From Campylobacterales bacterium (lineage in GTDB: Bacteria; Campylobacterota; Campylobacteria; Campylobacterales; QNZT01), in the NCBI GenBank assembly GCA_027023305.1, contig JALVVR010000048.1:150907-214906 (forward strand): 64,000 nucleotides of DNA. The letters run 5' to 3'. The notes under the pieces were generated by a model that worked only from the letters and a program-made list of their open reading frames with translations, had not been told where the DNA came from and searched no databases. The stretch's first letter is position 1; every line of letters starts with the position of its first letter. Both the position numbers and the translations under genes were made by a program. Below, one piece after another: positions 4,417 to 40,751 of this stretch.

Positions 4417-5187
4417 ATGAAAACTTTACTTATACTTTTATTTTTGCCTTTATTATTGTTAGCAGAAGAAAATCCTTTCGAGAAAAAACTTCCTTTTAAA
4501 GAAGCTATTATTGAGTATTCATTAGCTGGAAATCAAAAGGGAGTTGAAACTCTATATATAAAAGATTTTGGGAGACAAAAAGTTCTTTACACAAATACAA
4601 ACTCAAAAATCATCTCAAAAGATAAAGAACAACTAAGAGTCATGACACCAAAATGGATATATAGTATTGATAAAAACTCTGATATTGCTAATAGAATTCC
4701 AAATTTAAACTATCTTTTATATATAAGATATCAAGAGCTTACTAAAGCAGAACAAGAAAAGGTTTTAAAAAATTTAAAAACTATAAACTATCTACCTATC
4801 CAAGGAAGTAGATTTAAGATAGAAAAAAACTTTACTAAGATAAACAATATCTCATGCAATCAACTTATACAAAAGTCTAAAAAAAAATGCTATGGATATG
4901 ATGGTTCTCTTCTTTTAAAATCAGAGATAAAGTTTTTAGGATTTAACAAATCAAAGATTCTTACAAATATCTTTGAAACCAAAGTTGATCCTGCCCTTTT
5001 TAATTTAAAAGATTATGAGATAAAAGACAACAAGATAAAAAGTGTTCAAGAGTATGAAAAATCAAAAAAGATAATAGACTTTCTAAAAAGAAATATCAAC
5101 AAAAAAACTATATTTGTAAAAACAAAAAACTCTCATGATTATAACCAAGACATACAAGAAGGAATAAAAGCTTTAAAGAAAATATAA
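4417..5187 (+). CDS. Exported hypothetical protein
   Basis: Signal-peptide-like N-terminus MKTLLILLFLPLLLLA-E; 256-aa ORF. Confidence 0.75.
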   Translation: MKTLLILLFLPLLLLAEENPFEKKLPFKEAIIEYSLAGNQKGVETLYIKDFGRQKVLYTNTNSKIISKDKEQLRVMTPKWIYSIDKNSDIANRIPNLNYLLYIRYQELTKAEQEKVLKNLKTINYLPIQGSRFKIEKNFTKINNISCNQLIQKSKKKCYGYDGSLLLKSEIKFLGFNKSKILTNIFETKVDPALFNLKDYEIKDNKIKSVQEYEKSKKIIDFLKRNINKKTIFVKTKNSHDYNQDIQEGIKALKKI

Positions 5188-5191
5188 AAAG

Positions 5192-5224
5192 TTTTAAGTA
5201 AAGACTCTCGGTCTTTACTTAAAA
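5192..5224. terminator. Bidirectional intrinsic terminator between convergent genes
   Basis: Perfect 14-bp stem TTTTAAGTAAAGAC-TCTCG-GTCTTTACTTAAAA with a T-run after it on the minus strand. Confidence 0.8.
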
Positions 5225-5262
5225 GAAATTAGGAAAAAGGAAAGGAAAAGGTTCCTCAATTA

Positions 5263-5357
5263 CTTGAGGATCTCTATCTATAATAAGGGCACATCTAAAA
5301 GCTATGAGCTATGTATAGCTTTTAGATGTGCCCTCCGTATAGATACAAATCCTCAAG
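5263..5357. repeat. 95-nt nested inverted repeat (9+8+20-bp stems, two 3x3 internal loops); possible MITE/IS-end remnant or structured RNA
   Basis: CTTGAGGAT/ATCCTCAAG, TATCTATA/TATAGATA and AGGGCACATCTAAAAGCTAT/ATAGCTTTTAGATGTGCCCT. Confidence 0.85.
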
Positions 5358-5381
5358 CAAAGAGTGTTCCAACTTTAAAAA

Positions 5382-7361
5382 TTAGTACATAGAATCAAAG
5401 ATTACTTTAGCAAAACTATCCATTTGTAACTTTTTCTTTAACTCTATATTAGAATTTGCTTTACTAAACATAGCCTTACTTGATGCAATAGCAAAATCAC
5501 TTTTTGAACTTTGTAAGTTTTTGCCACTCACAACAAGTTTATACTCTCCTACTGGAAGATTATCAACCTCTATTTGTTCTGTATTATCTACATGATTCTC
5601 ACCTTTTGTGATATTTAAGCCACTTAAAACATAAGGATAATATTTATCGCCACTCTCTGTATTTACCAAATAACAATCTATATCATTTACCAATGTCCTA
5701 CCACCTGCACTATTTCCAGCTATATCAACCCAACTAATAGTAACTTTAAACTTTCCACTTGATTGTTTATAAAAACTATACTCCTTAACACCACCTCTAG
5801 CTATACTATCCATCTTTACTTTTTGTAAATCTTCATCTATCGTTTTTACTACATCCACTGCCTTTTTGGCATCTATCATCCCAAAACCTGCATATATATC
5901 AGGTCCACTACTTCCTTTATCAACTGCTGTATTTAACAAAACAGCTTTTAAAAGATCTACTCTCATATCACACCCACCATTTCCACACTCTGTCAAGTTT
6001 TTATACTCTTGCATAACCAAAGTTGCAAGTCCAAGTGCTGCAGGAGTAGCCATAGATGTCCCACTCATATAAGCATAACCTCCATCACTTGATGTAGAAT
6101 ATATACTACTTCCACCTACACTCAAATCAGGCTTTATTCTTCCATCATTTGTAGGTCCACTACTACTATAGTAAGCTACATCACTTGAGTTACTGTTCAA
6201 TGCTCCAACAGTTATAATGTTTTTTGCATTTGCTGCACCTTTAATAATCCCAGTATCTGCATATCCACTTCTTCCTCTATCATTTCCTGCTGCTACAAAC
6301 ATAGTGATATATGGATTATTATAAATAACACTATCTTCACTACTAGCATCACTATTATAACTACCCAAATCAGCCCTATCAGTAAATCCATAAGAGTGGT
6401 TTGATACTAAGATTTTATCTTTATTGTATAAACTATTTAAAGCACTAGCAAAATATGCATCTTGATAACTGTAATTATAAATAATTGCTTCATTTGCCAT
6501 ACCTCTAGCATAACTATCAACTCCTTTTGCAGCTATGATCCCTGCTACATGAGTAGTATGTAAAGATAGTGAACCTTTACCCACCCTATTTTTTACTCTA
6601 CTTACTGCTCCCTCTTTGAATTCAACATGATCTCTCTTTGCTTGACCTTCATCTACTATCCCAACTTTTATATTTGAACCATCAAGTCCTCCACTCCAAG
6701 CTTCTGTTGCATTTGTACTTCTTGCTGTATATATATCATCACTACTTATTTTTTTTGAAAACGGCTTTATCAAACCTATATCATGATACTTTGAGATATA
6801 TTTTACAACACTTAGATTTGCCAAAGTTTCTATATCTATTCCAGCTATATTTAACTCTACTATATTAAAATCATTGCTAACTTTTATTTTTGATGCATCT
6901 ATTCCACTATTTAAAAGTATTGTTTTAAATTCACTCTCATTTAGTGATTTTAAAAGCTCAACTTTAACTCTAATCACATCATTTAATGCTACATTTTTTA
7001 AATCATTTGATATTTTATATTTAAAATCTAACAGTGCAACACCATCTAAATCCTTAATACTATCTAGTAAAGTATCTATATCATTTCTACTACTTAATAG
7101 ATAAAAACTATTTTCACCACTATAAGTAACACTCTTTGCCCCTAACTTATACAAAGTATCCTTTTGTACTCTATTCAAAGGTTTGTAAGTTTTCACTACT
7201 ACTGTTATATCCTTATCTTCACTATCTAAAGACTCTAGTGCATGAAGTGATAACTTCTTGCTAAACTCTACCCTCTTGCCACCAAGTTCCAAATCACTAG
7301 CATGAGATAATCCACTCAGTATTGCAGTACTTAAAGCTACACTTAAAATTGACCTTTTCAT
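5382..7361 (-). CDS. Secreted S8 (subtilisin-like) serine peptidase with C-terminal beta domain
   Basis: Signal peptide; catalytic triad motifs VGIVDEG, HTTHVAGII and SGTSMATP; AAGN oxyanion motif; DGRIKPDL. Confidence 0.95.
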   Translation of the reverse strand: MKRSILSVALSTAILSGLSHASDLELGGKRVEFSKKLSLHALESLDSEDKDITVVVKTYKPLNRVQKDTLYKLGAKSVTYSGENSFYLLSSRNDIDTLLDSIKDLDGVALLDFKYKISNDLKNVALNDVIRVKVELLKSLNESEFKTILLNSGIDASKIKVSNDFNIVELNIAGIDIETLANLSVVKYISKYHDIGLIKPFSKKISSDDIYTARSTNATEAWSGGLDGSNIKVGIVDEGQAKRDHVEFKEGAVSRVKNRVGKGSLSLHTTHVAGIIAAKGVDSYARGMANEAIIYNYSYQDAYFASALNSLYNKDKILVSNHSYGFTDRADLGSYNSDASSEDSVIYNNPYITMFVAAGNDRGRSGYADTGIIKGAANAKNIITVGALNSNSSDVAYYSSSGPTNDGRIKPDLSVGGSSIYSTSSDGGYAYMSGTSMATPAALGLATLVMQEYKNLTECGNGGCDMRVDLLKAVLLNTAVDKGSSGPDIYAGFGMIDAKKAVDVVKTIDEDLQKVKMDSIARGGVKEYSFYKQSSGKFKVTISWVDIAGNSAGGRTLVNDIDCYLVNTESGDKYYPYVLSGLNITKGENHVDNTEQIEVDNLPVGEYKLVVSGKNLQSSKSDFAIASSKAMFSKANSNIELKKKLQMDSFAKVIFDSMY

Positions 7362-8521: not shown

Positions 8522-9769
8522 ATGATAGATTTAAAACTGCTAGAGAAAGATTTTGAAAATACAGCAAATAAACTAAAAAAGAAAAAAGTTGATGAAGAGC
8601 TTTTAGCCACTTTAAAAGATGAGTTCTCACTACTAAAATCAAAAAAAGCTAATCTTGAAGAACTCCAAGCAGAGCAAAACAAAAAAAGTAAACTCTTTCC
8701 ACAGTACAAAAAAGAGGGAAAAGATATAGGAGAGTTAAAAAAAGAGTTAGAAGAAAATAAAAAGAAAATTCAAGAAGCTACAGAGATAGTTAGAGTTGTT
8801 GAAGAAAAACTTCAAAACATCGCTTTAAATATCCCAAATCTTCCAGATGACAAAGTTCCTGAAGGTGAAGATGAAGAGGATAATATAGAGATTAAAAAAG
8901 TTGGTTCTCTTCCAAACTTTGACTTCACTCCAAAAGAACACTGGGATTTAGATAGTGAACAAAACATCATAGACTTCAAAAGAGGAGTTAAGTTAGCAAA
9001 GAGTAGATTTTCAGTTTTAAAAGGTATTGGTGCAAAACTAGAGAGAGCTTTAATAAACTATATGCTTGATTTTAACAGACAAAGAGGTTTTGAAGAAGTT
9101 GTAGTTCCATATATAGTAAACAAAGAAACTCTTCAAGGAACTGGACAACTTCCAAAATTTGCTGACGATTTGTTTAAAATAGAAGATGAAGAACTCTATC
9201 TTATCCCAACTGCAGAAGTGCCAGTAACAAACCTTTTTAGAGATGAAATACTAAGTAGCGATGAACTACCTATCTCTCTCACAGCATACTCAGCTTGTTT
9301 TAGAAAAGAAGCTGGAAGTGCAGGAAGAGATACGAGAGGAATGATAAGACAACATCAGTTTGATAAAGTAGAACTTGTTTGTATAACAAAACCAGAGCAA
9401 AGTGATGAAGTATTTGACAAAATGGTATCTTGTGCAAGTGATCTTTTAACCTCTTTAGGACTTCCTCATAGATTAGTAGAGCTTTGTGGAGGGGATTTGG
9501 GATTTAGTGCTGCTAAAACTATCGACTTAGAAGTATGGCTACCTGGACAAAAGAGATATAGAGAGATAAGCTCTATATCAAACACTAGAGATTTTCAAGC
9601 TCGTCGAGCAAAGATAAGATATAAAGATGGCAAGAAAAACATACTTGCTAATACACTAAATGGCTCATCTTTAGCAGTTGGTAGAACTCTAATAGCTATC
9701 ATGGAAAACTATCAAAAAGAGGATGGTAGCTTTGAAATACCTCAAGTTTTGAAAAAATACATGGAATAA
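8522..9769 (+). CDS. serS: Serine--tRNA ligase
   Basis: N-terminal coiled coil; [29 protein letters not shown] and [10 protein letters not shown]. Confidence 0.98.
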
Positions 9770-9772
9770 CAT

Positions 9773-12076
9773 ATGGCAGAAAATGAAGAGCTAGATGAAG
9801 TTATCCTTATTGATGATGAAATTGATGAGGAAGAAGAGCTACTTTTAGATAGTGATAAAGAAGAGCATAAAGAGAAAAAAAGCTCCAATACAACCAAATA
9901 TGTCATCATCTCTATAATATCTCTTCTAATTTTGCTAGCTCTCATAGGTACATACTTTCTTTTAAACCAAGATAAAGAGGAGATTGGATCTACTGAAACA
10001 AACTCCTCAAAAATACTTTCTAACATAAAAAAACATAAATCTTTTGCTAAACCTATGACAAACTTAGAATCACTAACAAAAAAAGCTAATAACCTATACA
10101 ATAGTGGTAAAAAAGAAGAAGCTTTAAAAATATACAAAAAGATATCTACTTTTCACAAATACTTATCTATCTTTAATCTTGGAGTATCAAGTCTTCAAAA
10201 AAATGATTTTAACAAATCTATAGGATATTTTGAAGAGTCTTTAAAGTTTGAAGAACTTAGCTTTGAAAGCTCTTTAAATCTTAGTATTTGCTATAAAAGT
10301 TTAAACAATCCTGAAAAATACAAACACTATCTAAACCAAGCAGATAAACTTGTGATAAACAAGTACAACTCACCACTTTTTGACTACTACTATGCACTTA
10401 TTTACTACTATAAAAACAAGCCTTTGGAGTCTATGATACTTTTAAACAAATACAAAGCTGCCTACTTTAGCTATGATAAAAACCTTCTACTAGCAAAGGA
10501 TTATATTTTGTTAAAAGATTATCCAAAAGCTCTCTCTCACCTTTTAAAACTAAAAGATAGTGACTATTATTTCACTATAGGGACACTTTACTCCAACTTT
10601 GGTAAGTATGATTTGGCACAAAACTATTTTATAAAAGCGATAAACTCAAAAAAAGATGTAGAAAAATCTCTAGTAGCTCTTAGTTTAGCTCAAAACAAGC
10701 TAGGAATGTTTGCTGATTGTAGTTCTACTTTAAAAACTATAAGCAAGAAACATCCAAAAGCTACAAAACTATTTCCTATAACTGTAAAGATAAAAGAGTC
10801 TTTATATGACCCTGTAAAGGCTCAAAAAGAGTTTAAAAACTCTATATTTTCAGATAAATTCAACAAATACACTCTACTGTTTTACTTTGCCCCTTATAAG
10901 CTATTTAACCCTGAGCAAACTAACTCTTTACTTAAAAGAGGTGTAAAAGAGATATATATAGATAACATAAATTCTGCAGATAACTACCTCAAAAAAGCTT
11001 CAAACATATCTGAGATAAATACAAAGATAGTGCAAGGATTAAAACTTTTACAAAGTCATAAAGTATATGAAGCAAACAAGCTTTTTAAAAATCTTATCAA
11101 AATCTATCCAAATCACTCAATCTTACATTACAACTTAGCACTAAGTTATGCAAACATAAATGATTTCCAAAATGCAAAAAAACACTTTGAGAAAAGTTAC
11201 CTATTGGATAAAACAAACTATCTATCTGCTTTTTTCTCTGCTTTTAGCTCAATACTAACTAACAAAAAATTTGATGATAAAACTATACTAAATATTGTAA
11301 AAAACAACAAAAAACATACAAAACAGATAATCCTTCTGAACAAAATCCTACAAGATGACCCAACTATACACTTAAGAGATGAAAAAAATCTTACCTCTTT
11401 TGATTTAATACTAAACATCATACTCTCTAATCTATCAAACAATTATACAAACTATAAACTTTTTACAAAAAAACTGCATATCATGATGCCAAAGGATTTA
11501 GTTACAAACATACTCTATGTTGACATGATTTCACAAACAAAAGATATAAAAGGTTATGCTAAAAATGTCCAAAACTATCTTGCAATAAAATCTTTAAATA
11601 AAAAACCTCTGCTTTATGGTGAAACTATTGCGAGAGAATTGTATATAAAAGTTTTAAATATAGCTGGTATAACAAGATTTGCAAAAGAACTTTTAGAAAA
11701 TGAACTTCCAACAAATCAAAACCAGATAGCACTTTTACAATCTTTAGCTTACACTTACATATATACAAAAGATTATGAAAAAGCTTACAAAATATATAAC
11801 AATCTTATTGACAACCTAAAAGTAGATGATCCACATACCCTACTTTTAGCTTCAGTTTCATCCATAGGAGCTAATCATCATGCAAATGCCATAGCACTTC
11901 AAGAGTTAGCAAATATAAACGACCGAACATTATTTGAAAGCAGATTTGCTTTAGGGATTCTTTATCAAGAGGCAAAAAATTTTGAGGGAGCTTCAATCCA
12001 ATTTTTAAAAATAGGAAATAGTGGGTTTAAGCCAAAGTACTTTGACTTTGACTTAAGAAACAAGGCTCAAAAATAA
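9773..12076 (+). CDS. pflB: Membrane-anchored TPR protein, probable flagellar motor accessory protein PflB
   Basis: Acidic N-terminus, single TM helix, TPR-like helices; trpS-serS-pflB synteny as in Campylobacter jejuni. Confidence 0.75.
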   Translation: MAENEELDEVILIDDEIDEEEELLLDSDKEEHKEKKSSNTTKYVIISIISLLILLALIGTYFLLNQDKEEIGSTETNSSKILSNIKKHKSFAKPMTNLESLTKKANNLYNSGKKEEALKIYKKISTFHKYLSIFNLGVSSLQKNDFNKSIGYFEESLKFEELSFESSLNLSICYKSLNNPEKYKHYLNQADKLVINKYNSPLFDYYYALIYYYKNKPLESMILLNKYKAAYFSYDKNLLLAKDYILLKDYPKALSHLLKLKDSDYYFTIGTLYSNFGKYDLAQNYFIKAINSKKDVEKSLVALSLAQNKLGMFADCSSTLKTISKKHPKATKLFPITVKIKESLYDPVKAQKEFKNSIFSDKFNKYTLLFYFAPYKLFNPEQTNSLLKRGVKEIYIDNINSADNYLKKASNISEINTKIVQGLKLLQSHKVYEANKLFKNLIKIYPNHSILHYNLALSYANINDFQNAKKHFEKSYLLDKTNYLSAFFSAFSSILTNKKFDDKTILNIVKNNKKHTKQIILLNKILQDDPTIHLRDEKNLTSFDLILNIILSNLSNNYTNYKLFTKKLHIMMPKDLVTNILYVDMISQTKDIKGYAKNVQNYLAIKSLNKKPLLYGETIARELYIKVLNIAGITRFAKELLENELPTNQNQIALLQSLAYTYIYTKDYEKAYKIYNNLIDNLKVDDPHTLLLASVSSIGANHHANAIALQELANINDRTLFESRFALGILYQEAKNFEGASIQFLKIGNSGFKPKYFDFDLRNKAQK

Positions 12077-12120
12077 CTTAATTTTAGGAATCTTTGCTAT
12101 ACGATATAATTAATAAATAG

Positions 12121-15100
12121 TTGTCTAAAAAAGATATAGTATTGATTATGCTTTAGTGAAATAATATATTCTTTTAGATAAACTATATTTAAACAAAAAG
12201 CTATAAATATTATAAAATGATATATTTTATTTACAAATAAAAATCGTTTTGCTAAGATTTTAAAAAATTTAAGGATACCTAGAAATGAATTTAAAACAAT
12301 ACTATAATGAATTTGATAATAAATTTAATAATTTAAAATTTATAGATAAAAAGTTTTATGAAAATATGGGCATTGTTGCATTTAATTCAAAAGCTAAGGT
12401 AAAAGATTCACAAAATAGATATAGTGAAGAATATATTAGAGCAAGATTTGTTTATGCACTTATTCATAGTGGTCTTTATCCAAAAGAATATATTTGTATA
12501 GAATTTGGTTTTCCCAAAGGTAATACAAAAACAAAATTAAAACCTGACATAGTAATATTTAAAAATAAGGAGTGGCAAAAAGATTTTAAAGAAGCTGTGT
12601 CTAATAAAAATTTTTCAAAAATTAGACAAAATATTTTAGTTATTTTTGAAACAAAAAAAAATAATAAATCAATAGAAAATGCTATTGAAAATCAACTTCG
12701 TTCTGCCATGAATGAGAATGAATCAAAAGATAAAATATTTGGTATTTATTTTGATGATGAAGATGATATCTTAATATTTAAAAAGTTTGGTAATTCACCT
12801 ATTAGAAGATTTAATGAAAATTTAGAAAGAAGTAGTGGTGGTATAACAAATTTAAATTTTGATAAGAGAGATCTTTTAAATGAAATTCCATCATTTGAAG
12901 ATTTTAAAAATAACAATGAAAGCATTTCAAATCTTGAAAAATTAACAATAGATTCTCTTGAAGCAATAGATGAAACAAATTTTGAAAAATTTATGTCTGT
13001 ATTGAGTAAAGATGCTGATAGGATAAGACCAAAACATGAGGAAAGAGATTTAATTGTAGAGTTTTTAACATTAAAAGTATTTGATGAAAAACGAAGTAAA
13101 AGAGATAAAACAAATTTGTTATTTTATATTAAATCAAGTGAAATAAAAAAAGATGGTCTGGCAGAGCTTAGTTTTAGACAACGAATAATAAATCTTTATA
13201 AAGATGCTAAGAAAGAATATAAAACAATTCTTTCTAAACCATATTTTACTTATGATAAAAGTTTTAGACCTAGTGATGCAAACGAAGAAAGATTTTTAAT
13301 AGCATTAGTGGAAAATTTTCAAAAACGAGCTATCCTAAAATCAAAAAATGAAAGTTTTAATCAGATTATTTTTAATAATTTTGGAAGTGAAAAACAAAAA
13401 GCAGATAAAGGACAATTTTTCACTCCTATTCCAGTTGTAAAAACAATTATTAAAATATTAAATCCAATTAAAAATGAAGAGCTGTGTGATCCTTGCTGTG
13501 GTATAGCAGATTTCCCAACTATGGCATTTAGACATTCATATAGAGATAAGGTTGATGATTTTCCAAATGCAAGTCATTATTATGGCTTTGATCTTGAACC
13601 CAATAATTTAAAATTAGCAGAACTAAATCTTGTACTAAATGGGGATGGTGGTGCTACACTTAAACAAATGGATTCTTTATTTCAAAAAATGCTTATTTCT
13701 GGTGAAGTAAATAATATAGGAGAGTTTACAGATAAATTCTATGATACAAACTGGTTTCACAAAGATGATAGTGATAAAGATTTAAGAAAATTTAAAATAA
13801 TAGCAACTAATCCTCCATTTGGTAAAGGTCGGGATTTATTAATAACTAAATCTAATAAATCAACAATAAACCTATATGAAACATATCATGAAAAACTTGA
13901 ACTTGATACAAGGGGTAATAAGAAATTACCAAATAGTATGGATATGGGAGTTTTATTTTTAGAAAATAGCTATAAATTGCTTGAAGCTGGTGGTAGGATG
14001 GGTATTGTTCTTTCCAACTCAATTGCAAGTATAAAAGAATGGGAAAGAGTTAGACTCTGGTTACTAGATAAGATGAGGATTGTGGCATTATTTGATTTAC
14101 CAGCAAATACATTTGGTGAGACAGGTGTTTCCACAACTGTAATAATTGCTTATAAACCAAAAGAAAATGAACAACATTTATTAAATAATAATTATGAAAT
14201 ATTTATAAAAGAAATACAAAATCTCGGTTATAAAGTACATGAAAAACAAAGAATAGTTCAATTTAAACCACAATTTATAATCAATGAAGAAACTTTTGAA
14301 TTTACAAGTGACTTAAATGAAGATTTTACGGCTATGATAAAAGATTTTAAACAATATCTTCAAAGACAGGAAGAAGAAATAAAAGATGCTTTTCATTTAA
14401 AGGAGTTTGAATAATGAAAAGTTATATATCTAAAAATTTATTGATTAATAAAAAAGATATATTAAATAAAAAATCTTTTCTTCCTAAAGATTATAGAATG
14501 ATTGAATCAAACAATAGTAATTTTTATACAATTAATCAATATATTATAGAAGAAAAAGTAGGTGAACAAATAAATGTAGAAAATTATCTAACTTTTAATA
14601 GTGATTTTAAATTAATCACTATATCTAATATGGAGAATTTATTATTAGATTTTTCAAAAGGTGAATGGATTCCTCCAAAATTATATAAAAAATCATCAAA
14701 AAAAATCCGAAAAGGTGAATTTTTAATTAGTAGAAATGCTTCATTGGGAAAAATATCTTTTGTAAATAAAAAATGCAATGCAATACTAAATGGTGGAATA
14801 TCCAAACTACTTATAGATGATAAAAAAAAGTGGTATATCTTTGCCTTTTTTATTTCTAATTATGGAAAAGATTACTTATCCCTATTAACTTCTGGTGGCG
14901 GTACACAACAAAATGCAAAAAGACAAAATCTTCTTGATGTTAAAATTCCTTTTCCAACTAGTTATAATCATGATAATCCAAATGATATTGAGTTATTGGT
15001 ATCTTTAATTACCCAAAATATAATTGATAAAGAAGAACAAATTAATTTTAAAAGAGAACAAATAGATAATTTTATAGAAAATGAATTGAAAAATCATCAA

Positions 15101-15942
15101 AAATCAAACTCTCAACAATATAGTTATCCAAAATTAAATTTATTAAAAAAAGAAATTAGACTTGATACAGGATTATATGAAAAAGAATACCAACTAAATA
15201 ATAATTTAATAACAAATTATATAAATGGGTATTTTAATATACCAATAGAAAAATTTAAAAGTGGATCTACTCCAAAAATAAGAATATTTAATGGTGGTAA
15301 ACTTAATTACAATTGGGTTACACCTACAGATATTAAAGATTTTGGTTTTTACACTCCTATTGAAAAAATATCTATGCCAACAATCTATAATTTAACACAG
15401 GATGCTATTTTATTTATAAACAGAACTTCAAAAGGAAAAAAAGGTGAATATGTTGGGATATCTTGTTTTTACGATTATAGTTACTATAGCAAGGGACACC
15501 ATAACCAAGGTATATATAGAGTTGAGGATTTTTCAAAACTAGAGAAGTTATTTATAACAACTTTTATGAATAGTAAAATAGTGAGAAAAATTTGTGGAAG
15601 AGTATCAATCGGTTCAAAAATGAAAGAGATGAAATCTTATGATTTTTCTAAATTAAATTTTCCAAATTTTCCAATAAATAAACAAAAAAAAGTAGTAAAA
15701 CATTATTACAATTATATAGATAACTTAAATGATATTACATTTGATAATTACTTAGATAAAAATAAAAAGCGAAATAATAAATTAGGTGTGTATCAGCTCT
15801 CTATTGAAATATTTACTTTGAAGAAAAAATTGGAAATAATAATTGATAAAATAATATTAAATAGTAAAATAAATATAGAAGAGTATTTATTAGACAACAA
15901 TACCTACCACCAAACAGGTAAACCTGTCGGTGAAGTCAATCA
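12121..15942 (+). mobile_element. Solitary integron gene cassette carrying a two-gene R-M system, inserted at a secondary (attG-like) site
   Basis: Left end G|TTGTCTAA (12120-12128) is the exact reverse complement of TTAGACAAC (15890-15898), the R'' box of a downstream attC; interior is visibly more AT-rich than the flanks. Confidence 0.8.
12285..14414 (+). CDS. Fused restriction endonuclease / N6-adenine methyltransferase (Type IIB/IIG-like RM subunit)
   Basis: N-terminal EEYIR and PD-(D/E)xK motif (KPDIVIF...FETK); GQFFTP; motif I DPCCG; motif IV NPPF; DLPANTF. Confidence 0.9.
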   Translation: MNLKQYYNEFDNKFNNLKFIDKKFYENMGIVAFNSKAKVKDSQNRYSEEYIRARFVYALIHSGLYPKEYICIEFGFPKGNTKTKLKPDIVIFKNKEWQKDFKEAVSNKNFSKIRQNILVIFETKKNNKSIENAIENQLRSAMNENESKDKIFGIYFDDEDDILIFKKFGNSPIRRFNENLERSSGGITNLNFDKRDLLNEIPSFEDFKNNNESISNLEKLTIDSLEAIDETNFEKFMSVLSKDADRIRPKHEERDLIVEFLTLKVFDEKRSKRDKTNLLFYIKSSEIKKDGLAELSFRQRIINLYKDAKKEYKTILSKPYFTYDKSFRPSDANEERFLIALVENFQKRAILKSKNESFNQIIFNNFGSEKQKADKGQFFTPIPVVKTIIKILNPIKNEELCDPCCGIADFPTMAFRHSYRDKVDDFPNASHYYGFDLEPNNLKLAELNLVLNGDGGATLKQMDSLFQKMLISGEVNNIGEFTDKFYDTNWFHKDDSDKDLRKFKIIATNPPFGKGRDLLITKSNKSTINLYETYHEKLELDTRGNKKLPNSMDMGVLFLENSYKLLEAGGRMGIVLSNSIASIKEWERVRLWLLDKMRIVALFDLPANTFGETGVSTTVIIAYKPKENEQHLLNNNYEIFIKEIQNLGYKVHEKQRIVQFKPQFIINEETFEFTSDLNEDFTAMIKDFKQYLQRQEEEIKDAFHLKEFE

Positions 15943-16015
15943 TTATCTAGGATCTATAACAAACTTAAAACCAGCATATGCTTTACTATCTAGTTTAAAA
16001 TCTCCACTTTTATAG
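14414..16015 (+). CDS. Restriction-modification specificity (S) subunit; ORF reads through attC into the end of the YfaZ-like gene
   Basis: TAATG coupling to the RM gene; two HsdS-like half-repeats ending LLDVKIPFP and SKLNFPNFPINKQKKVV. Confidence 0.8.
   Translation: MKSYISKNLLINKKDILNKKSFLPKDYRMIESNNSNFYTINQYIIEEKVGEQINVENYLTFNSDFKLITISNMENLLLDFSKGEWIPPKLYKKSSKKIRKGEFLISRNASLGKISFVNKKCNAILNGGISKLLIDDKKKWYIFAFFISNYGKDYLSLLTSGGGTQQNAKRQNLLDVKIPFPTSYNHDNPNDIELLVSLITQNIIDKEEQINFKREQIDNFIENELKNHQKSNSQQYSYPKLNLLKKEIRLDTGLYEKEYQLNNNLITNYINGYFNIPIEKFKSGSTPKIRIFNGGKLNYNWVTPTDIKDFGFYTPIEKISMPTIYNLTQDAILFINRTSKGKKGEYVGISCFYDYSYYSKGHHNQGIYRVEDFSKLEKLFITTFMNSKIVRKICGRVSIGSKMKEMKSYDFSKLNFPNFPINKQKKVVKHYYNYIDNLNDITFDNYLDKNKKRNNKLGVYQLSIEIFTLKKKLEIIIDKIILNSKINIEEYLLDNNTYHQTGKPVGEVNHYLGSITNLKPAYALLSSLKSPLL
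15892..15948 (+). other. attC recombination site (57 bp) with degenerate R' (ATT instead of GTT)
   Basis: R'' AGACAAC, 5-nt spacer AATAC, L'' CTACCACC, stem AA-(A)-CAGGT-AA-ACCTG-TC, L' GGTGAAG, 6-nt spacer TCAATC, R' ATTATCT. Confidence 0.8.
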
Positions 16016-16524
16016 TTTGTATTTACTCTTCTAGCTCCTACATAGACATTTACATTTGGGATGATATTTGTATCTAGTTCCACTCTATAGTCTCCATAGT
16101 TTTCACCATCTTGAAAAGTTAAAACACTTGGTGCATAATCAGCCTTTATACCAAGATAAGTTTCAGGAAGTCCCTCTAAGCCAAGTCTAGCTTTTGCACC
16201 AAAAGTTATAGGCATAGCTGTAAAACTATCAGCACCATTACTACTATGAACACCTTTTAAACCTATACTAAACAAAAGATTTTGGTAGTTTATCGGAGAA
16301 TTCTCTGCACTTACTCCTAATCCATAAAGATTTTTTTTAGCATTTAGATAGTTACCCTCTAGAAAAAAGTTTCTATACTCTGGAACATCAGTAAAATACT
16401 CTATAGAACTCTTACCCTCTATCTCAACATCATCTTGATTTATATTGATTCCTATTGAAGCTCTCTCAAAACTAAACAAACTTGTTGCTACTAGTAACGA
16501 AACTAAGGAAATTTTCTTTAACAT
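15943..16524 (-). CDS. YfaZ-family outer-membrane beta-barrel protein
   Basis: Signal peptide; YAPSVLTF motif; alternating beta pattern; C-terminal YAGFKF. Confidence 0.8.
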   Translation of the reverse strand: MLKKISLVSLLVATSLFSFERASIGININQDDVEIEGKSSIEYFTDVPEYRNFFLEGNYLNAKKNLYGLGVSAENSPINYQNLLFSIGLKGVHSSNGADSFTAMPITFGAKARLGLEGLPETYLGIKADYAPSVLTFQDGENYGDYRVELDTNIIPNVNVYVGARRVNTNYKSGDFKLDSKAYAGFKFVIDPR

Positions 16525-16581
16525 TTCTTACTCCTTGGTAATTTTTTTATATTTTAAGATAACTTTTATTATAGTTTGTTT

Positions 16582-18078
16582 ATGAAATATTTAATTTTAC
16601 TAATTTTTTTTATAAATAATTTAGTTTCGTCAAGTTTACACCTCTCAATTAGTTCTAGTCCAAGTAGATTAAACCCTATGTTAGCGACTGATAGTGCTAG
16701 TAGTGAGATATCAGGATGGATTTTTAACTCATTAGTTGAATATGATAAAAATGGCACTATTATTCCAAGACTATCATCAAGTTGGCACTTTATAGATGAT
16801 AAAACCTTAATTTTTAAACTTAAAAAAAATATTAAGTGGAGTGATGGTAAACAATTTGGAGCAGATGATGTTGTCTTTACATACAAGCTCATAACCTCTC
16901 CAAAAATCTACACTCCATACTCTAATGAGTTTAGATATGTAAAATCAGTTGAGAAAATAGATGACTTTACCATAAAGGTTACCTATAAAAAACCATATTT
17001 TAAAGCTCTAAATACATGGATGACCTCCATAGTCCCAAAACATATCCTAGAAAAGCAAAAAGATATTATGACAAGTCCTTTTAATCAACACCCTATTGGA
17101 ACTGGAGCTTATACCATAGATGGCTTTGAAGTGAGCAAAGATATAGTCCTAAAAGCTAATCCAAACTATTTCATACATAAACCAAATATTGATAAAATCA
17201 TATATCATTTTATTCCTGACCCATCAACCTCTTTTCTCATGCTAAAAACAAAAAAACTAGATGTAGGAGGACTTACACCTCTTCAAGTCGAGAGACAATT
17301 AACAAAAGATTTCAAATCAACCTACAATATCTTTGAAAAAATGTCAAACTCATATACATACCTAGGTTTCAACTTAAAAAACAAAAAGTTTCAAAATCCT
17401 CTAGTTAGAAAAGCTATCTCTATGGCGATAGACAAGCAACAACTCATTGATATACTTTTTTTCGGTCATGGAAGAGTTTGTAATGGTCCATTTATGCCAA
17501 AAACTTGGGGCTATAACAAAGATATAAAAACTCCTTACAATCCACAAAAAGCAAAAGAGTTACTTAAAGAAGCTGGATATACAAAAAAAAATCCACTTAC
17601 TTTTACCATAACAACTAATTCAAACAATGATATAAGAGTAAATGCAGTTCAAATAATCCAATACCAACTAGCAAAAATAGGAGTAAAAGTAAAGATAAAA
17701 ACTATGGAGTGGCAAGCTTTTTTAAATACTGTTGTCATGCCAAAAAACTTTGAAGCTGTAGTTCTTGGTTGGGGATTATCCATCTCTCCTGATGCCTACT
17801 CTATTTGGCATAGTGATGGAGCTAAAAAAGGTGGTTTTAACTTTGTTAGTTACAAAAACCAAAAAGTTGATAAACTCATAAAAAAAGCTGAAACAACTAT
17901 CGATAAAAAATTACTATCTAGTTACTATAAAGAGATTTTCAAACTTATAGTAAATGACCACCCTTATGTCTTTTTATATATTCCAAACTCTATAACTGCT
18001 GTAAGTAAATCTATAAAAAATGTAAGCCCTAGTATCATAGGTATCATGCATAATGAGATTGATTGGATAAAGCCCTAA
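16582..18078 (+). CDS. Peptide ABC transporter substrate-binding protein (family 5)
   Basis: LNPMLATDSAS, KWSDGKQFGADDVVFTY and PIGTGAY; ATG at 16582 preferred over the TTG at 16576. Confidence 0.92.
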   Translation: MKYLILLIFFINNLVSSSLHLSISSSPSRLNPMLATDSASSEISGWIFNSLVEYDKNGTIIPRLSSSWHFIDDKTLIFKLKKNIKWSDGKQFGADDVVFTYKLITSPKIYTPYSNEFRYVKSVEKIDDFTIKVTYKKPYFKALNTWMTSIVPKHILEKQKDIMTSPFNQHPIGTGAYTIDGFEVSKDIVLKANPNYFIHKPNIDKIIYHFIPDPSTSFLMLKTKKLDVGGLTPLQVERQLTKDFKSTYNIFEKMSNSYTYLGFNLKNKKFQNPLVRKAISMAIDKQQLIDILFFGHGRVCNGPFMPKTWGYNKDIKTPYNPQKAKELLKEAGYTKKNPLTFTITTNSNNDIRVNAVQIIQYQLAKIGVKVKIKTMEWQAFLNTVVMPKNFEAVVLGWGLSISPDAYSIWHSDGAKKGGFNFVSYKNQKVDKLIKKAETTIDKKLLSSYYKEIFKLIVNDHPYVFLYIPNSITAVSKSIKNVSPSIIGIMHNEIDWIKP

Positions 18079-38868: not shown

Positions 38869-40599
38869 TTAAAACTCAAATCCCATCTTCTTCTCCTCTC
38901 CGAAAGTACCTTTTATCTCTCTTTGTATCTCTTCTAAAAAGTCCTTGTTTTCAAAGGTTGGTTCATCTTTTATAGCCACTTTTATAGCTGTATTTTTAAC
39001 TACAACACTTATCTGTCCTCCACTAAGATTTGCTTTTGCTAACTCTTCTATATTTACTGTTTTACTATCAAGTGCTACTTTTGGTAACATTTTAGCCCAT
39101 AGCTTTACTCGCTGTTCAAGGTTTGGTTTTGAGAACTCTATCTTATAATCAAACCGTCTTGAAAATGCACTATCCAAAGTCTCTAAAAGGTTTGTAGTTG
39201 CTATCAAAATCCCACTAAACTTCTCTATCTGCTCTAAAAAGATATTTTGCATCTGATTATGCATCTTATCACTTCCACTTCCTCCAGTCGTTCTACTACT
39301 TAAAAACTGATCAGCTTCATTTAAAAGTAGTACTGGATGAGACTTACTCTTTTTTGTAAGGTCATTGTATGTGTCAAAAATCTTTCTTACATTTTTCTCA
39401 CTCTCTCCCACATACATAGAAAGAATCTTTGAACAATCAAAACTTAAAACCTTTCTTTTCAAATTTTTTGCCAAGGAGTATGCAGTCATAGTCTTTCCAG
39501 TCCCTGGAGGTCCATAAAAAAGTAACTTGGCATCTACATTTGAGTTTGTTTTTATACCCCACTCTTTAAGCCTTTTTGCTACTTTTTTATCTACTTGTTT
39601 AAGAACTCCTTTTAAAAGCTCATCAGTTTTTGGATGAAGCACTACATCTTTTAAAGTAGTCTTGGGTGTAACAAGCTCAAATATCTCTTGCTCTTTTATA
39701 AGTGTATCGATTGTTATCTTCTCACTCTTTTTAAGCTTATTTGGATGCATGATAGTTTGTAAAATTTCCTCTTCGATAAAAAAGCTTCTACTAACCCCAC
39801 CAAAAGCTGTAAGCATCTCATCATAATCGATAATCTCTTTTTCTATCAAAGTAGATCCCTCTTCTAAAAGACTTCTGTTTTTTATCTTGTCATAGTCATT
39901 TTCACTTATCAAGTTTATAAGATTATTCATCTCTCTTAAAGAATCTATCTCACTAGAATACTCCTCTTTTAAAAGTACCAAAAATATAATCTGCTCTTTT
40001 TGCTTTAACTCATACTTTGAAAATAGCTCCTCAACAGTAAGCTTGTTTTTTGTACTTGTAACTCTTTCATTGATTCTAGTTTCAAGTAGTTTAAGCCTAT
40101 TTTTTAGTCTATCAATACTAAGTGAGTTATCAGGATAGTTTTCTCTTATATTAGCTATCTTTTGGTAAATCTCTATACGAGAAAACTGGTCTCTTAGATA
40201 CTCCAAGTGGTCACTGTAAGCAGTAGATTCAGGAAGCTCAACCTCTAAAGTCCCCTCCTCTAAAAGCTTTTGAAAACTTGGACTTAAAGTAACAGAAGAG
40301 TTTATAAGCTCTAAAGTAGATACATCTATACTCTTTGATTCAAAAAGACTACTGATACTAAGCCAACCAAGATGTAAAAGATTTTTCACCATAGGAAGCT
40401 TCTGCACATAGTTATACTCTCCATTATCTGGATAAATCTCATTTAAAACCATATATACTAAACTCTCACTAGAGCCCTCGATATGCTTTTTTACTATATT
40501 TTGCAAAATCTCAGCTTCATCTTTTGAACATTTTAGATGAGAGTAAATTTTTGCTTTTGTTATATCTTTTACTTTTATAAAGTCTATTAGGTATTCCAA
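38869..40599 (-). CDS. AAA+ family ATPase
   Basis: GPPGTGKT, SMYVGESEKN, LLLNEAD and LDSAFSRRF; likely TTG start at 40599 after AAGGA. Confidence 0.9.
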   Translation of the reverse strand: MEYLIDFIKVKDITKAKIYSHLKCSKDEAEILQNIVKKHIEGSSESLVYMVLNEIYPDNGEYNYVQKLPMVKNLLHLGWLSISSLFESKSIDVSTLELINSSVTLSPSFQKLLEEGTLEVELPESTAYSDHLEYLRDQFSRIEIYQKIANIRENYPDNSLSIDRLKNRLKLLETRINERVTSTKNKLTVEELFSKYELKQKEQIIFLVLLKEEYSSEIDSLREMNNLINLISENDYDKIKNRSLLEEGSTLIEKEIIDYDEMLTAFGGVSRSFFIEEEILQTIMHPNKLKKSEKITIDTLIKEQEIFELVTPKTTLKDVVLHPKTDELLKGVLKQVDKKVAKRLKEWGIKTNSNVDAKLLFYGPPGTGKTMTAYSLAKNLKRKVLSFDCSKILSMYVGESEKNVRKIFDTYNDLTKKSKSHPVLLLNEADQFLSSRTTGGSGSDKMHNQMQNIFLEQIEKFSGILIATTNLLETLDSAFSRRFDYKIEFSKPNLEQRVKLWAKMLPKVALDSKTVNIEELAKANLSGGQISVVVKNTAIKVAIKDEPTFENKDFLEEIQREIKGTFGEEKKMGFEF

Positions 40600-40751
40600 A
40601 TTTATTTCCTTGACTAAAAATATCTTCAATGACAGCTTCATCTGTTCATTGCTAGATATTATTACATTAGTTTTCATATTTCAAAGAATTATTATATGAT
40701 TATTAACTTATTGGGAGTAAAATCGGACAATTTTTATATCAAAGGATAATC

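Follow-up and report, generated by a model that had tools for sequence, protein, structure and literature searches.

We describe an integron-derived unit that carries a restriction-modification (RM) system and is probably stranded outside any integron. It lies in a 64,000-nucleotide stretch (the window) of contig C48 (JALVVR010000048.1) of G000 (GCA_027023305.1), a 1.82-Mb, 73-contig, AT-rich metagenome bin of the Arcobacteraceae group with a contamination of 5.28%. The unit would consist of a 43-nt fragment of an attI recombination site, a cassette with the genes of an RM subunit and of a specificity (S) subunit, and the cassette's own attC site. Its neighbors are a gene of tetratricopeptide (TPR) repeats and a YfaZ-like gene; for the former we keep the name pflB, given by a first-pass annotation of the window, Pfam detecting only TPR repeats in this gene. 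We conclude that the island is a genuine solitary integron cassette with an RM system, located between core genes and delivered with a piece of attI.

The cassette ends in an attC site of a conserved family

The right end of the cassette is formed by an element with the following parts.

15890-15945, + strand: attC site, a 57-bp element (family alignment; covariance model built without the window copy)
15892-15898, + strand: R'' box AGACAAC, within TTAGACAAC (15890-15898)
15904-15911, + strand: L'' box CTACCACC (sequence)
15914-15918 and 15923-15927, + strand: central hairpin, stem ACAGG/CCTGT (sequence)
15929-15935, + strand: L' box GGTGAAG (sequence)
15936-15941, + strand: TCAATC spacer (sequence)
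15942-15945, + strand: degenerate R' box, ATTA where the family has GTTA (family alignment)
15942, + strand: A instead of the crossover G, which is present in 9/9 other family members (alignments)

The R'', L'', stem, L' and TCAATC motifs by which the first-pass annotation had recognized attC geometry are all found in place when the sequence is read. The R and L boxes are separated by 5-nt (AATAC) and 6-nt (TCAATC) spacers, L'' is 8 nt long versus 7 nt for L', which puts the extra base on the L'' side as in attC palindromes, and the bottom strand folds end to end. The R'' box AGACAAC is present, while R' reads ATTATCT and lacks the G; GTTA is found in all nine other copies of the family.

The claim that this element is an attC is upheld by its relatives. 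A blastn search with positions 11000-17200 against 41 related genomes recovered copies of 15889-15947, with 85-89% identity, in seven other genomes and at a second place in its own, that is, in 8 of the 41 genomes when the window's own is included. The 10 copies align without gaps, and their similarity begins at the ..ACAAC box and ends at C-GTTA; the 3' end reads ...C-GTTA in 9/9 of the other copies, and AAC is present at the R'' box in 8/9. A family-specific covariance model (R2), built from the nine family copies other than that of the window, finds the window copy as its best match in the 64 kb (64.8 bits, E = 3.3e-14). Thirteen of the 15 modeled pairs are standard in the window copy, and the two broken ones are both due to a G-to-A change (15912 in the L stem, and 15942). 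The G at the attC crossover is the base where integron recombination sites are cut.

It is because of these conserved relatives that we regard the element as real, and not because of its fold or of the 9-mer that it shares with the cassette start. The fold alone is weak (z = -1.75 for the top strand and -1.44 for the bottom strand versus shuffles), and so is the 9-mer alone, since GTTGTCTAA occurs four times on the two strands of the window versus 1.0 expected, a count of 4 being reached by 3 of 100 shuffles. In four vent metagenome runs, 15825-16005 is covered 6 to 100 times as deeply as its flanks, and metagenome contigs diverge at 15891-15903 and 15945-15950, where the attC family ends. A search of 15700-16100 against Rfam gave no match at E <= 10. 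By its sequence, the 57-bp element is an attC of a conserved family.

Seven of the eight genomes with this family have a match to the integron integrase gene intI at E <= 1e-30 (G029 has none). On contig C30 of G001, another attC precedes the family copy at a distance of one cassette, and several copies sit at contig ends. The family was not found next to intI in the assembled arrays of six relatives; no assembled intI-adjacent array contains it because the draft contigs break off 0-1560 nt upstream of intI.

The cargo of the family includes other defense genes: the second copy of the window's own genome follows gajB (606 bits), and the copy in genome G027 follows a retron-type reverse transcriptase (RT)-Toprim gene (614 bits). 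The former is intact (G000:C22:44394-44464, minus strand, 83.7 bits) and stands right after the gajB gene of a Gabija system; next comes a RelE/ParE-like toxin-antitoxin pair, with the core genes purU, pyrH, rpoZ and spoT beyond it. No start was found for this Gabija cassette, as the contig breaks off within the upstream gene. Within the window, the view that there is no other attC stands in that none is convincing, but the model does give one weak match (40607-40676, minus strand, 34.6 bits, E = 4e-6), without AAC/GTT ends. We rejected this match as a second attC; it lies within the first codons of a 602-aa open reading frame (ORF; 38869-40677). Similar weak hairpin matches occur at G000:C17:93001 and C48:109687.

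The cassette is preceded by a fragment of an attI region

The left side of the island has the following features, Pc being the cassette promoter.

12121-15942, + strand: cassette proper, 3822 nt, two genes, from the attI-type junction to the attC crossover
12120-12128, + strand: junction G|TTGTCTAA, first bases of the cassette, exact complement of TTAGACAAC (15890-15898)
12078-12120, + strand: Pc/attI-region fragment (delta-attI), 43 nt, ending in AATAAATAG at the crossover (blastn; alignment; absent from island-free relatives)
12105-12110, + strand: TATAAT hexamer, 10 nt upstream of the cassette (sequence)

The first-pass annotation had noted that the left end is the exact 9-bp complement of R'', and all nine nucleotides do agree (G12120|TTGTCTAA); the cassette ends that it derived, 12121 and 15942, are also borne out. 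Such complementarity between a cassette start and its own R'' was found in four other cassettes, namely, the first cassette of G027 (8 nt), another at 388 kb in G027 (9 nt), and those of G001:C30 (8 nt) and G029:C20 (10/12).

The nature of the DNA to the left of this junction is what changes the interpretation. The first-pass annotation took GTTAT as a native secondary (attG) target of the integrase, but the adjoining 43 nt are a homologue of the Pc/attI region. When 12056-12122 is searched in its own genome with blastn, the best nonself matches are C71:5749-5800 (E = 1.1e-5, 79% over 52 nt) and C72:117-168 (E = 9.6e-5), the third-ranked match having an E value of only 0.022. Both regions end at the same AATAAATAG|TT as the window fragment. 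The last 14 nt before 12121 agree at 13 of 14 positions with the intI-proximal site on contig C17, and the 16-mer pattern TAATNAATAAATAGTT over the crossover-proximal bases is found in the genome only at these two places, the window and the C17 site. Contig C71 carries G|TTAATTTTAGG exactly where the window fragment begins. Given the homology of the 43 nt to the Pc/attI region, 12120|12121 is an attI x attC-type junction and not a native GTTAT (attG) site. The window holds attI only as a fragment, the full intI-attI spacer measuring ~250 nt.

The TATAAT hexamer occupies the position of the -10-like box in the attI regions of G006, G027, C71 and C72, and we infer that it may belong to a Pc-like promoter. 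A scan of the region for consensus promoters showed no enrichment (34 found versus 32.3 expected).

Relatives without the island define the inserted DNA

We compared 13 island-free pflB|yfaZ junctions, from three same-genus genomes, five Logan contigs (4/4 runs, two of which belong to one study and one to that of the probable source) and five metagenome loci (5/6 loci found via the YfaZ protein, the sixth being without pflB beside it). The two stop codons are ~0-31 nt apart in all 13, and none of the 13 contains window positions 12078-12120. Removal of the cassette therefore fails to restore AAATAG|TTATCT, the empty site that the first-pass annotation had predicted, since the 43 nt left of 12120 are missing from all of these junctions. 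The same annotation had set 12120 and 15943 as the places to which the junctions of such relatives should map: the right one does so (15943/15944), but the left one maps to 12060-12079.

On the left, the homology of the relatives ends at 12056-12060, and a comparison by eye with locus L115 extends the native sequence to ~12078. The closest empty site (X3 record 11) has a left flank that is ~99% identical (3 differences in 259 nt), and there 12060 is joined to 15943 via 7 nt. A 12-nt indel distinguishes the 3' end of pflB from the closest empty sites, and the last codons of this gene are unlike those in the island-free relatives. On the right, every relative becomes homologous again from 15943 or 15944 onward, the junction being at 15943 in 3/4 runs and at 15944 in two runs. 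A BLAST extension of the G002 alignment to 15938 was discarded as spurious, since the in-frame alignment of the yfaZ stop codon needs no gap.

Because 12078-12120 is absent from all empty sites, the inserted DNA is about 12079-15942 and not 12121-15942. Its right end is the attC crossover base, which abuts the yfaZ TTA without extra letters; this TTA (15943-15945 on the + strand) serves at once as the yfaZ stop codon and as the TTA of the attC crossover.

An integrase and further attI copies in the same bin

As the first-pass annotation had reported, there is no intI in the window: all five matches to TIGR02249 in its own genome are on contig C17. The integrase that it expected to act in trans is available in the same bin, where intI (G000:C17:380-1348) is intact and full length, has no stops and scores 419 bits versus a cut-off of 265. 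Among the 41 related genomes, 14 have an intI above this cut-off. On C17, intI lies convergent with recO and is followed by gltB/gltD. The contig end lies 0-420 nt upstream of intI in six relatives and 1.3-1.6 kb upstream in two others.

The attI motif AATAAATAG|TT is found ~250 nt upstream of intI in G000, G006, G021 and G027, and one-letter variants of it in G008 and G004. In G027, a complete genome, AATAAATAG|TTAGCTC closes the region upstream of intI, and the R'' of the first cassette's attC is GAGCTAAC, the complement of the cassette start. For this integrase family, the sequence upstream of intI is conserved between genomes up to a point where G|TT and a cassette follow, as expected of attI.

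Copies of the intI-attI intergenic region without an integrase are present elsewhere in G000, at C71:5500-5801, after grpE-dnaK, and at C72:113-420, after a thioredoxin gene; both end with AATAAATAG|TTA. They match the intI-attI spacers of G006, G014 and G021 colinearly, and they may be orphan receptor sites. Three copies of the region lie within 80 kb in G027 (G027:C1:311851, 382010 and 388141; L027, L030 and L031), and only one of them has intI. The two intI-less copies comprise the whole spacer (~250 nt), and each precedes G|TT and a cassette. The one at 388 kb is followed by a solitary AT-rich retron RT-Toprim cassette that has the attC family of the window and a start complementary to its R''. 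G027 is a GC-richer genome of another family, and its AT-rich retron cassette suggests cassette traffic between families.

On C17 and C72, the attI crossover is directly followed by a repeat of at least 300 nt (repeat X), present in four to five copies (C17:1-123, C72:1-115, C47:95900-96394 and C11:892-1193). The C47 copy ends in a ~135-nt palindrome bounded by AAC and GTT, whose R''-like box pairs with the start of the repeat. A noncoding cassette and an rRNA leader are both conceivable identities of repeat X, which had no match at E <= 1e-10 in 24 relatives. There is no 16S gene in the bin or in the 15 same-family relatives scanned, and the regions upstream of 16S in three distant genomes hold nothing resembling the repeat. 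We dropped the idea of the module as an rRNA promoter, no 16S gene being near the intI of G027.

The restriction-modification pair

The genes of the locus are, in order, serS, the 767-aa TPR gene, the 709-aa ORF and the 533-aa ORF, followed by the YfaZ-like gene on the opposite strand.

12285-14414, + strand: RM subunit, 709 aa (Pfam HSDR_N_2 and N6_Mtase domains)
14414-16015, + strand: S subunit ORF, 533 aa (PADLOC, NCBIfam)
8522-9769: serS
9773-12076, + strand: left flank, 767-aa TPR-repeat gene ("pflB") after serS (ORF list; Pfam TPR families)
15943-16524, - strand: right flank, YfaZ-like outer membrane gene (Pfam YfaZ, 24.6 bits, cut-off 23)

The complete stretch is present in one sequencing run only, which is labeled hydrothermal vent metagenome. 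The RM and S genes named by the first-pass annotation are recognized by Pfam, NCBIfam and PADLOC, and, as it had observed, the pair is GC-poorer than its surroundings (0.19-0.30 inside versus 0.28-0.33 outside).

The 709-aa protein is a gamma-class N6-adenine methyltransferase (Pfam N6_Mtase, 96.6 bits; NPPF motif) whose N terminus is nuclease-like, with an HSDR_N_2 score of 24.5 bits that is slightly below the Pfam cut-off of 25. The motifs KPD..ETK (PD..ExK type), DPCCG and NPPF are readable in the translation. As in type IIB enzymes, a single chain combines a nuclease-like domain with an N6-adenine methyltransferase, both with their motifs (PD..ExK and NPPF) intact, and a separate S subunit with two target recognition halves, also characteristic of that type, is found by PADLOC (Specificity_I in two stretches of the 533-aa protein; NCBIfam MAD5 and type I S). 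The 709-aa protein matches type I M subunits and RM.BsaXI in the PDB, and MTase_II, mad2 and REase_MTase_IIG in PADLOC. The layout of RM plus S and the weak similarity to RM.BsaXI would best be read as a type IIB-like enzyme.

Halarcobacter and Arcobacter bins hold the closest RM homologues. The nearest (L046, in a Halarcobacter bin) has 82% amino acid identity, and the nucleotide homology of the cassette to it begins only at 12160. The S proteins of the two share 35% identity with a conserved central region; their alignment ends at residue 474/533 in the window versus 468/491 in L046, so the S protein of the homologue terminates ~36 residues sooner than the window ORF. The latter has no stop before or inside attC, and 39 codons run through attC into the antisense of yfaZ; for this reason the S ORF shares its last 73 nt (15943-16015) with the YfaZ-like gene, in tail-to-tail orientation. 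The RM pair of L046 is flanked by two insertion sequence (IS) transposase genes (DDE_Tnp_1 and rve; 4504-5673 and 11926-12912) and not by att sites, and the same RM pair therefore travels by other vehicles too.

Possible routes to the stranded cassette

In the scenario that we propose, the G12120|T12121 junction would have been made by attI x attC recombination, and the integron integrase, supplied in trans, would have inserted the whole unit at the yfaZ stop codon. That the right end of the insert is the attC crossover base, set against the yfaZ TTA, favors the involvement of an integrase. We prefer a one-step path, although we would give it somewhat less than an even chance. A circle would have been excised between a GTT ~43 nt upstream of the attI crossover and the cassette attC, taking the attI fragment along, and would then have been inserted at C|TTA. 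Transcription of the RM genes could start from the TATAAT of the attI fragment, from a promoter of the cassette itself, or from both. Two later G-to-A changes in attC would have made excision unlikely and fixed the defense system; since one of them is at the crossover G, the attC is probably disabled and the cassette probably now fixed.

Several observations weigh against this scenario. Since the yfaZ ORF ends at the right junction, homology to relatives would break off there anyway, and the precision of this junction is less telling. The crossover of the window attC reads ATT and not GTT, making its recombination competence putative. The one-step path needs a C|TT target, whereas the attG consensus, in the available part of a preprint (bioRxiv 10.1101/2022.09.11.507474), keeps the G, and the closest empty sites hold two more T's than this path predicts. 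The presence of C17, with intI, and C48, with the window, in one cell is an assumption, in a bin that is 5.28% contaminated. The RM pair was not found with attC elsewhere: the check proposed by the first-pass annotation, whether its homologues occur inside integron arrays, gave no match in the 42 homologue loci, of 60, that have at least 42% identity and were scanned with the attC family model (E <= 1). The 3' flank of the S gene in the closest RM homologue has no hairpin (fold z = -0.34).

The history may also have taken two steps, an intI-less attI fragment already sitting between pflB and yfaZ and capturing the RM cassette later by attI x attC recombination in trans. The 12120|12121 junction is exactly what this would give, and other intI-less copies of the intI-attI region exist, after dnaK on C71 and after the thioredoxin gene on C72, with two more in G027. 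We nevertheless hold it to be unlikely, at perhaps a quarter of the weight of evidence, as a site with the fragment alone occurs in none of the 13 island-free junctions, the ~43-nt fragment is far shorter than the 170-250-nt orphan regions elsewhere, and an earlier event that placed the fragment is still required. The route envisaged by the first-pass annotation, insertion of a simple cassette circle (12121-15942) at a native attG site, GTTAT, with 12078-12120 as native spacer, agrees with the cassette ends and with the R''/R' complementarity, and a distant relative (L118, 58% amino acid identity in YfaZ) reads ..ATAG|TTATCT at the same place. G|TTAT also fits the GWT target in the available part of the preprint (bioRxiv 10.1101/2022.09.11.507474). 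It is, however, improbable in view of the 43 nt, which are missing from 13 of 13 island-free junctions (the closest, with its ~99% identical left flank, has a 7-nt spacer) and are homologous to attI regions, with 13 of the 14 nt before the crossover matching the resident attI.

Arrival without an integrase, by illegitimate or homology-assisted joining of foreign attI-cassette-attC DNA in which attC is the relic of an array, is hardly more probable than the native attG route. The 12-nt indel at the pflB 3' end looks as if flanks had been exchanged with another lineage, attC is mutated, and the natural transformability of the group, an assumption, is counted in its favor; but an insert that ends exactly at the attC crossover against the yfaZ TTA is unlikely for a random end. 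It is very improbable that the element is a dispersed hairpin repeat or a terminator that happens to follow defense genes. Three weak matches in its own genome (35-37 bits) do share a similar core without AAC/GTT ends, and the weak fold z-scores of the window copy and the lack of an Rfam match point the same way. Similarity among the copies stops, however, exactly at the AAC and GTT(A) boxes, the first bases pair with the own R'' box in five cassettes, the G001 copy is one cassette downstream of another attC, and seven of the eight genomes with the family also have intI. Moreover, there is no T-run after the stem, and a terminator scan of the region found 0 terminator-like sites.

Relation to known systems

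In the available part of the preprint by Loot et al. (bioRxiv 10.1101/2022.09.11.507474), a SALIN is a single attC without an integron integrase, and cassettes are inserted in genomes outside att sites; the class 1 integrase performs such insertions and can excise beyond the insertion point. The island resembles a SALIN or attG insertion in having one cassette and one attC between core-gene flanks, far from intI, with an integrase in trans and the right junction at the attC crossover. It differs in that its left side is an attI-region fragment and not native DNA with a GWT site, and in that none of the 13 island-free junctions shows the predicted attG site. SALINs have no intI or other att site nearby, whereas here an attI-like fragment abuts the cassette. 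Since part of attI was carried along with its putative promoter, attG is not the sole route.

As far as the available part of Gonzales Machuca et al. (Sci Rep 2026, PMC12901181) goes, attI fragments of 8-238 nt that end at the crossover travel in class 1/2 arrays and are recombination proficient. The truncated attI that travels with our cassette is like these delta-attI cassettes, and the class 2 core AATAAAATG|TT resembles AATAAATAG|TT here. In the arrays treated in that part of the article (PMC12901181), however, the fragment replaces attC downstream of the ORF, whereas the window fragment is upstream of a canonical cassette, in a chromosomal location without an integron. In contrast to delta-attI cassettes, it also stems from an uncharacterized chromosomal integrase family of Arcobacteraceae-like bacteria.

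Kieffer et al. reportedly described anti-phage defense cassettes of integrons. The island shares with such cassettes its defense cargo, and its attC has sister copies associated with gajB and with a retron RT-Toprim gene; unlike such cassettes, it is outside an array, unusually long (3.8 kb, two genes) and has an ORF that reads through attC. Anti-phage defense cassettes of integrons are also the subject of Darracq et al., to judge from the available part of that preprint (bioRxiv 10.1101/2024.07.02.601686). The enzyme itself resembles the type IIB systems BcgI/BsaXI (RM.BsaXI, PDB 8w0p) in its chain of nuclease-like N terminus and gamma-class methyltransferase and in its separate two-half S. 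The similarity to RM.BsaXI is weak (E = 7.6e-9, in the methyltransferase part), and the best profile matches, type I and MADS-type methyltransferases, are below cut-offs.

Significance for integrons of vent Campylobacterota

Solitary cassettes are numerous, but their origin has been argued mostly from E. coli assays with the class 1 integrase. The locus described here is a natural case that can be resolved to the base: its cassette ends are defined, an integrase is resident, 13 island-free sites are available for comparison, and another family provides a sister case. Our literature search on native integrons of hydrothermal vent Campylobacterota found none, the matches all being on resistance genes in waters. 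The attC family is common to several genera of these bacteria, and its defense cargo gains a 3.8-kb two-gene restriction system, Gabija and a retron. A piece of attI that bears a putative promoter would explain how a stranded cassette is expressed, and the intI-less attI copies hint at receptor sites.

It is possible, though we consider it doubtful, that a single chromosomal integrase serves several dispersed docking sites, each a whole or partial intI-less Pc/attI copy with a cassette, with attI fragments hitchhiking. Examples of such sites are those after dnaK and after the thioredoxin gene, that at pflB-yfaZ in the window, and the two within 80 kb in G027. If this is true, the integron of these bacteria would be a distributed system rather than a single array, and its cassettes, often anti-phage, would share one highly conserved type of attC.

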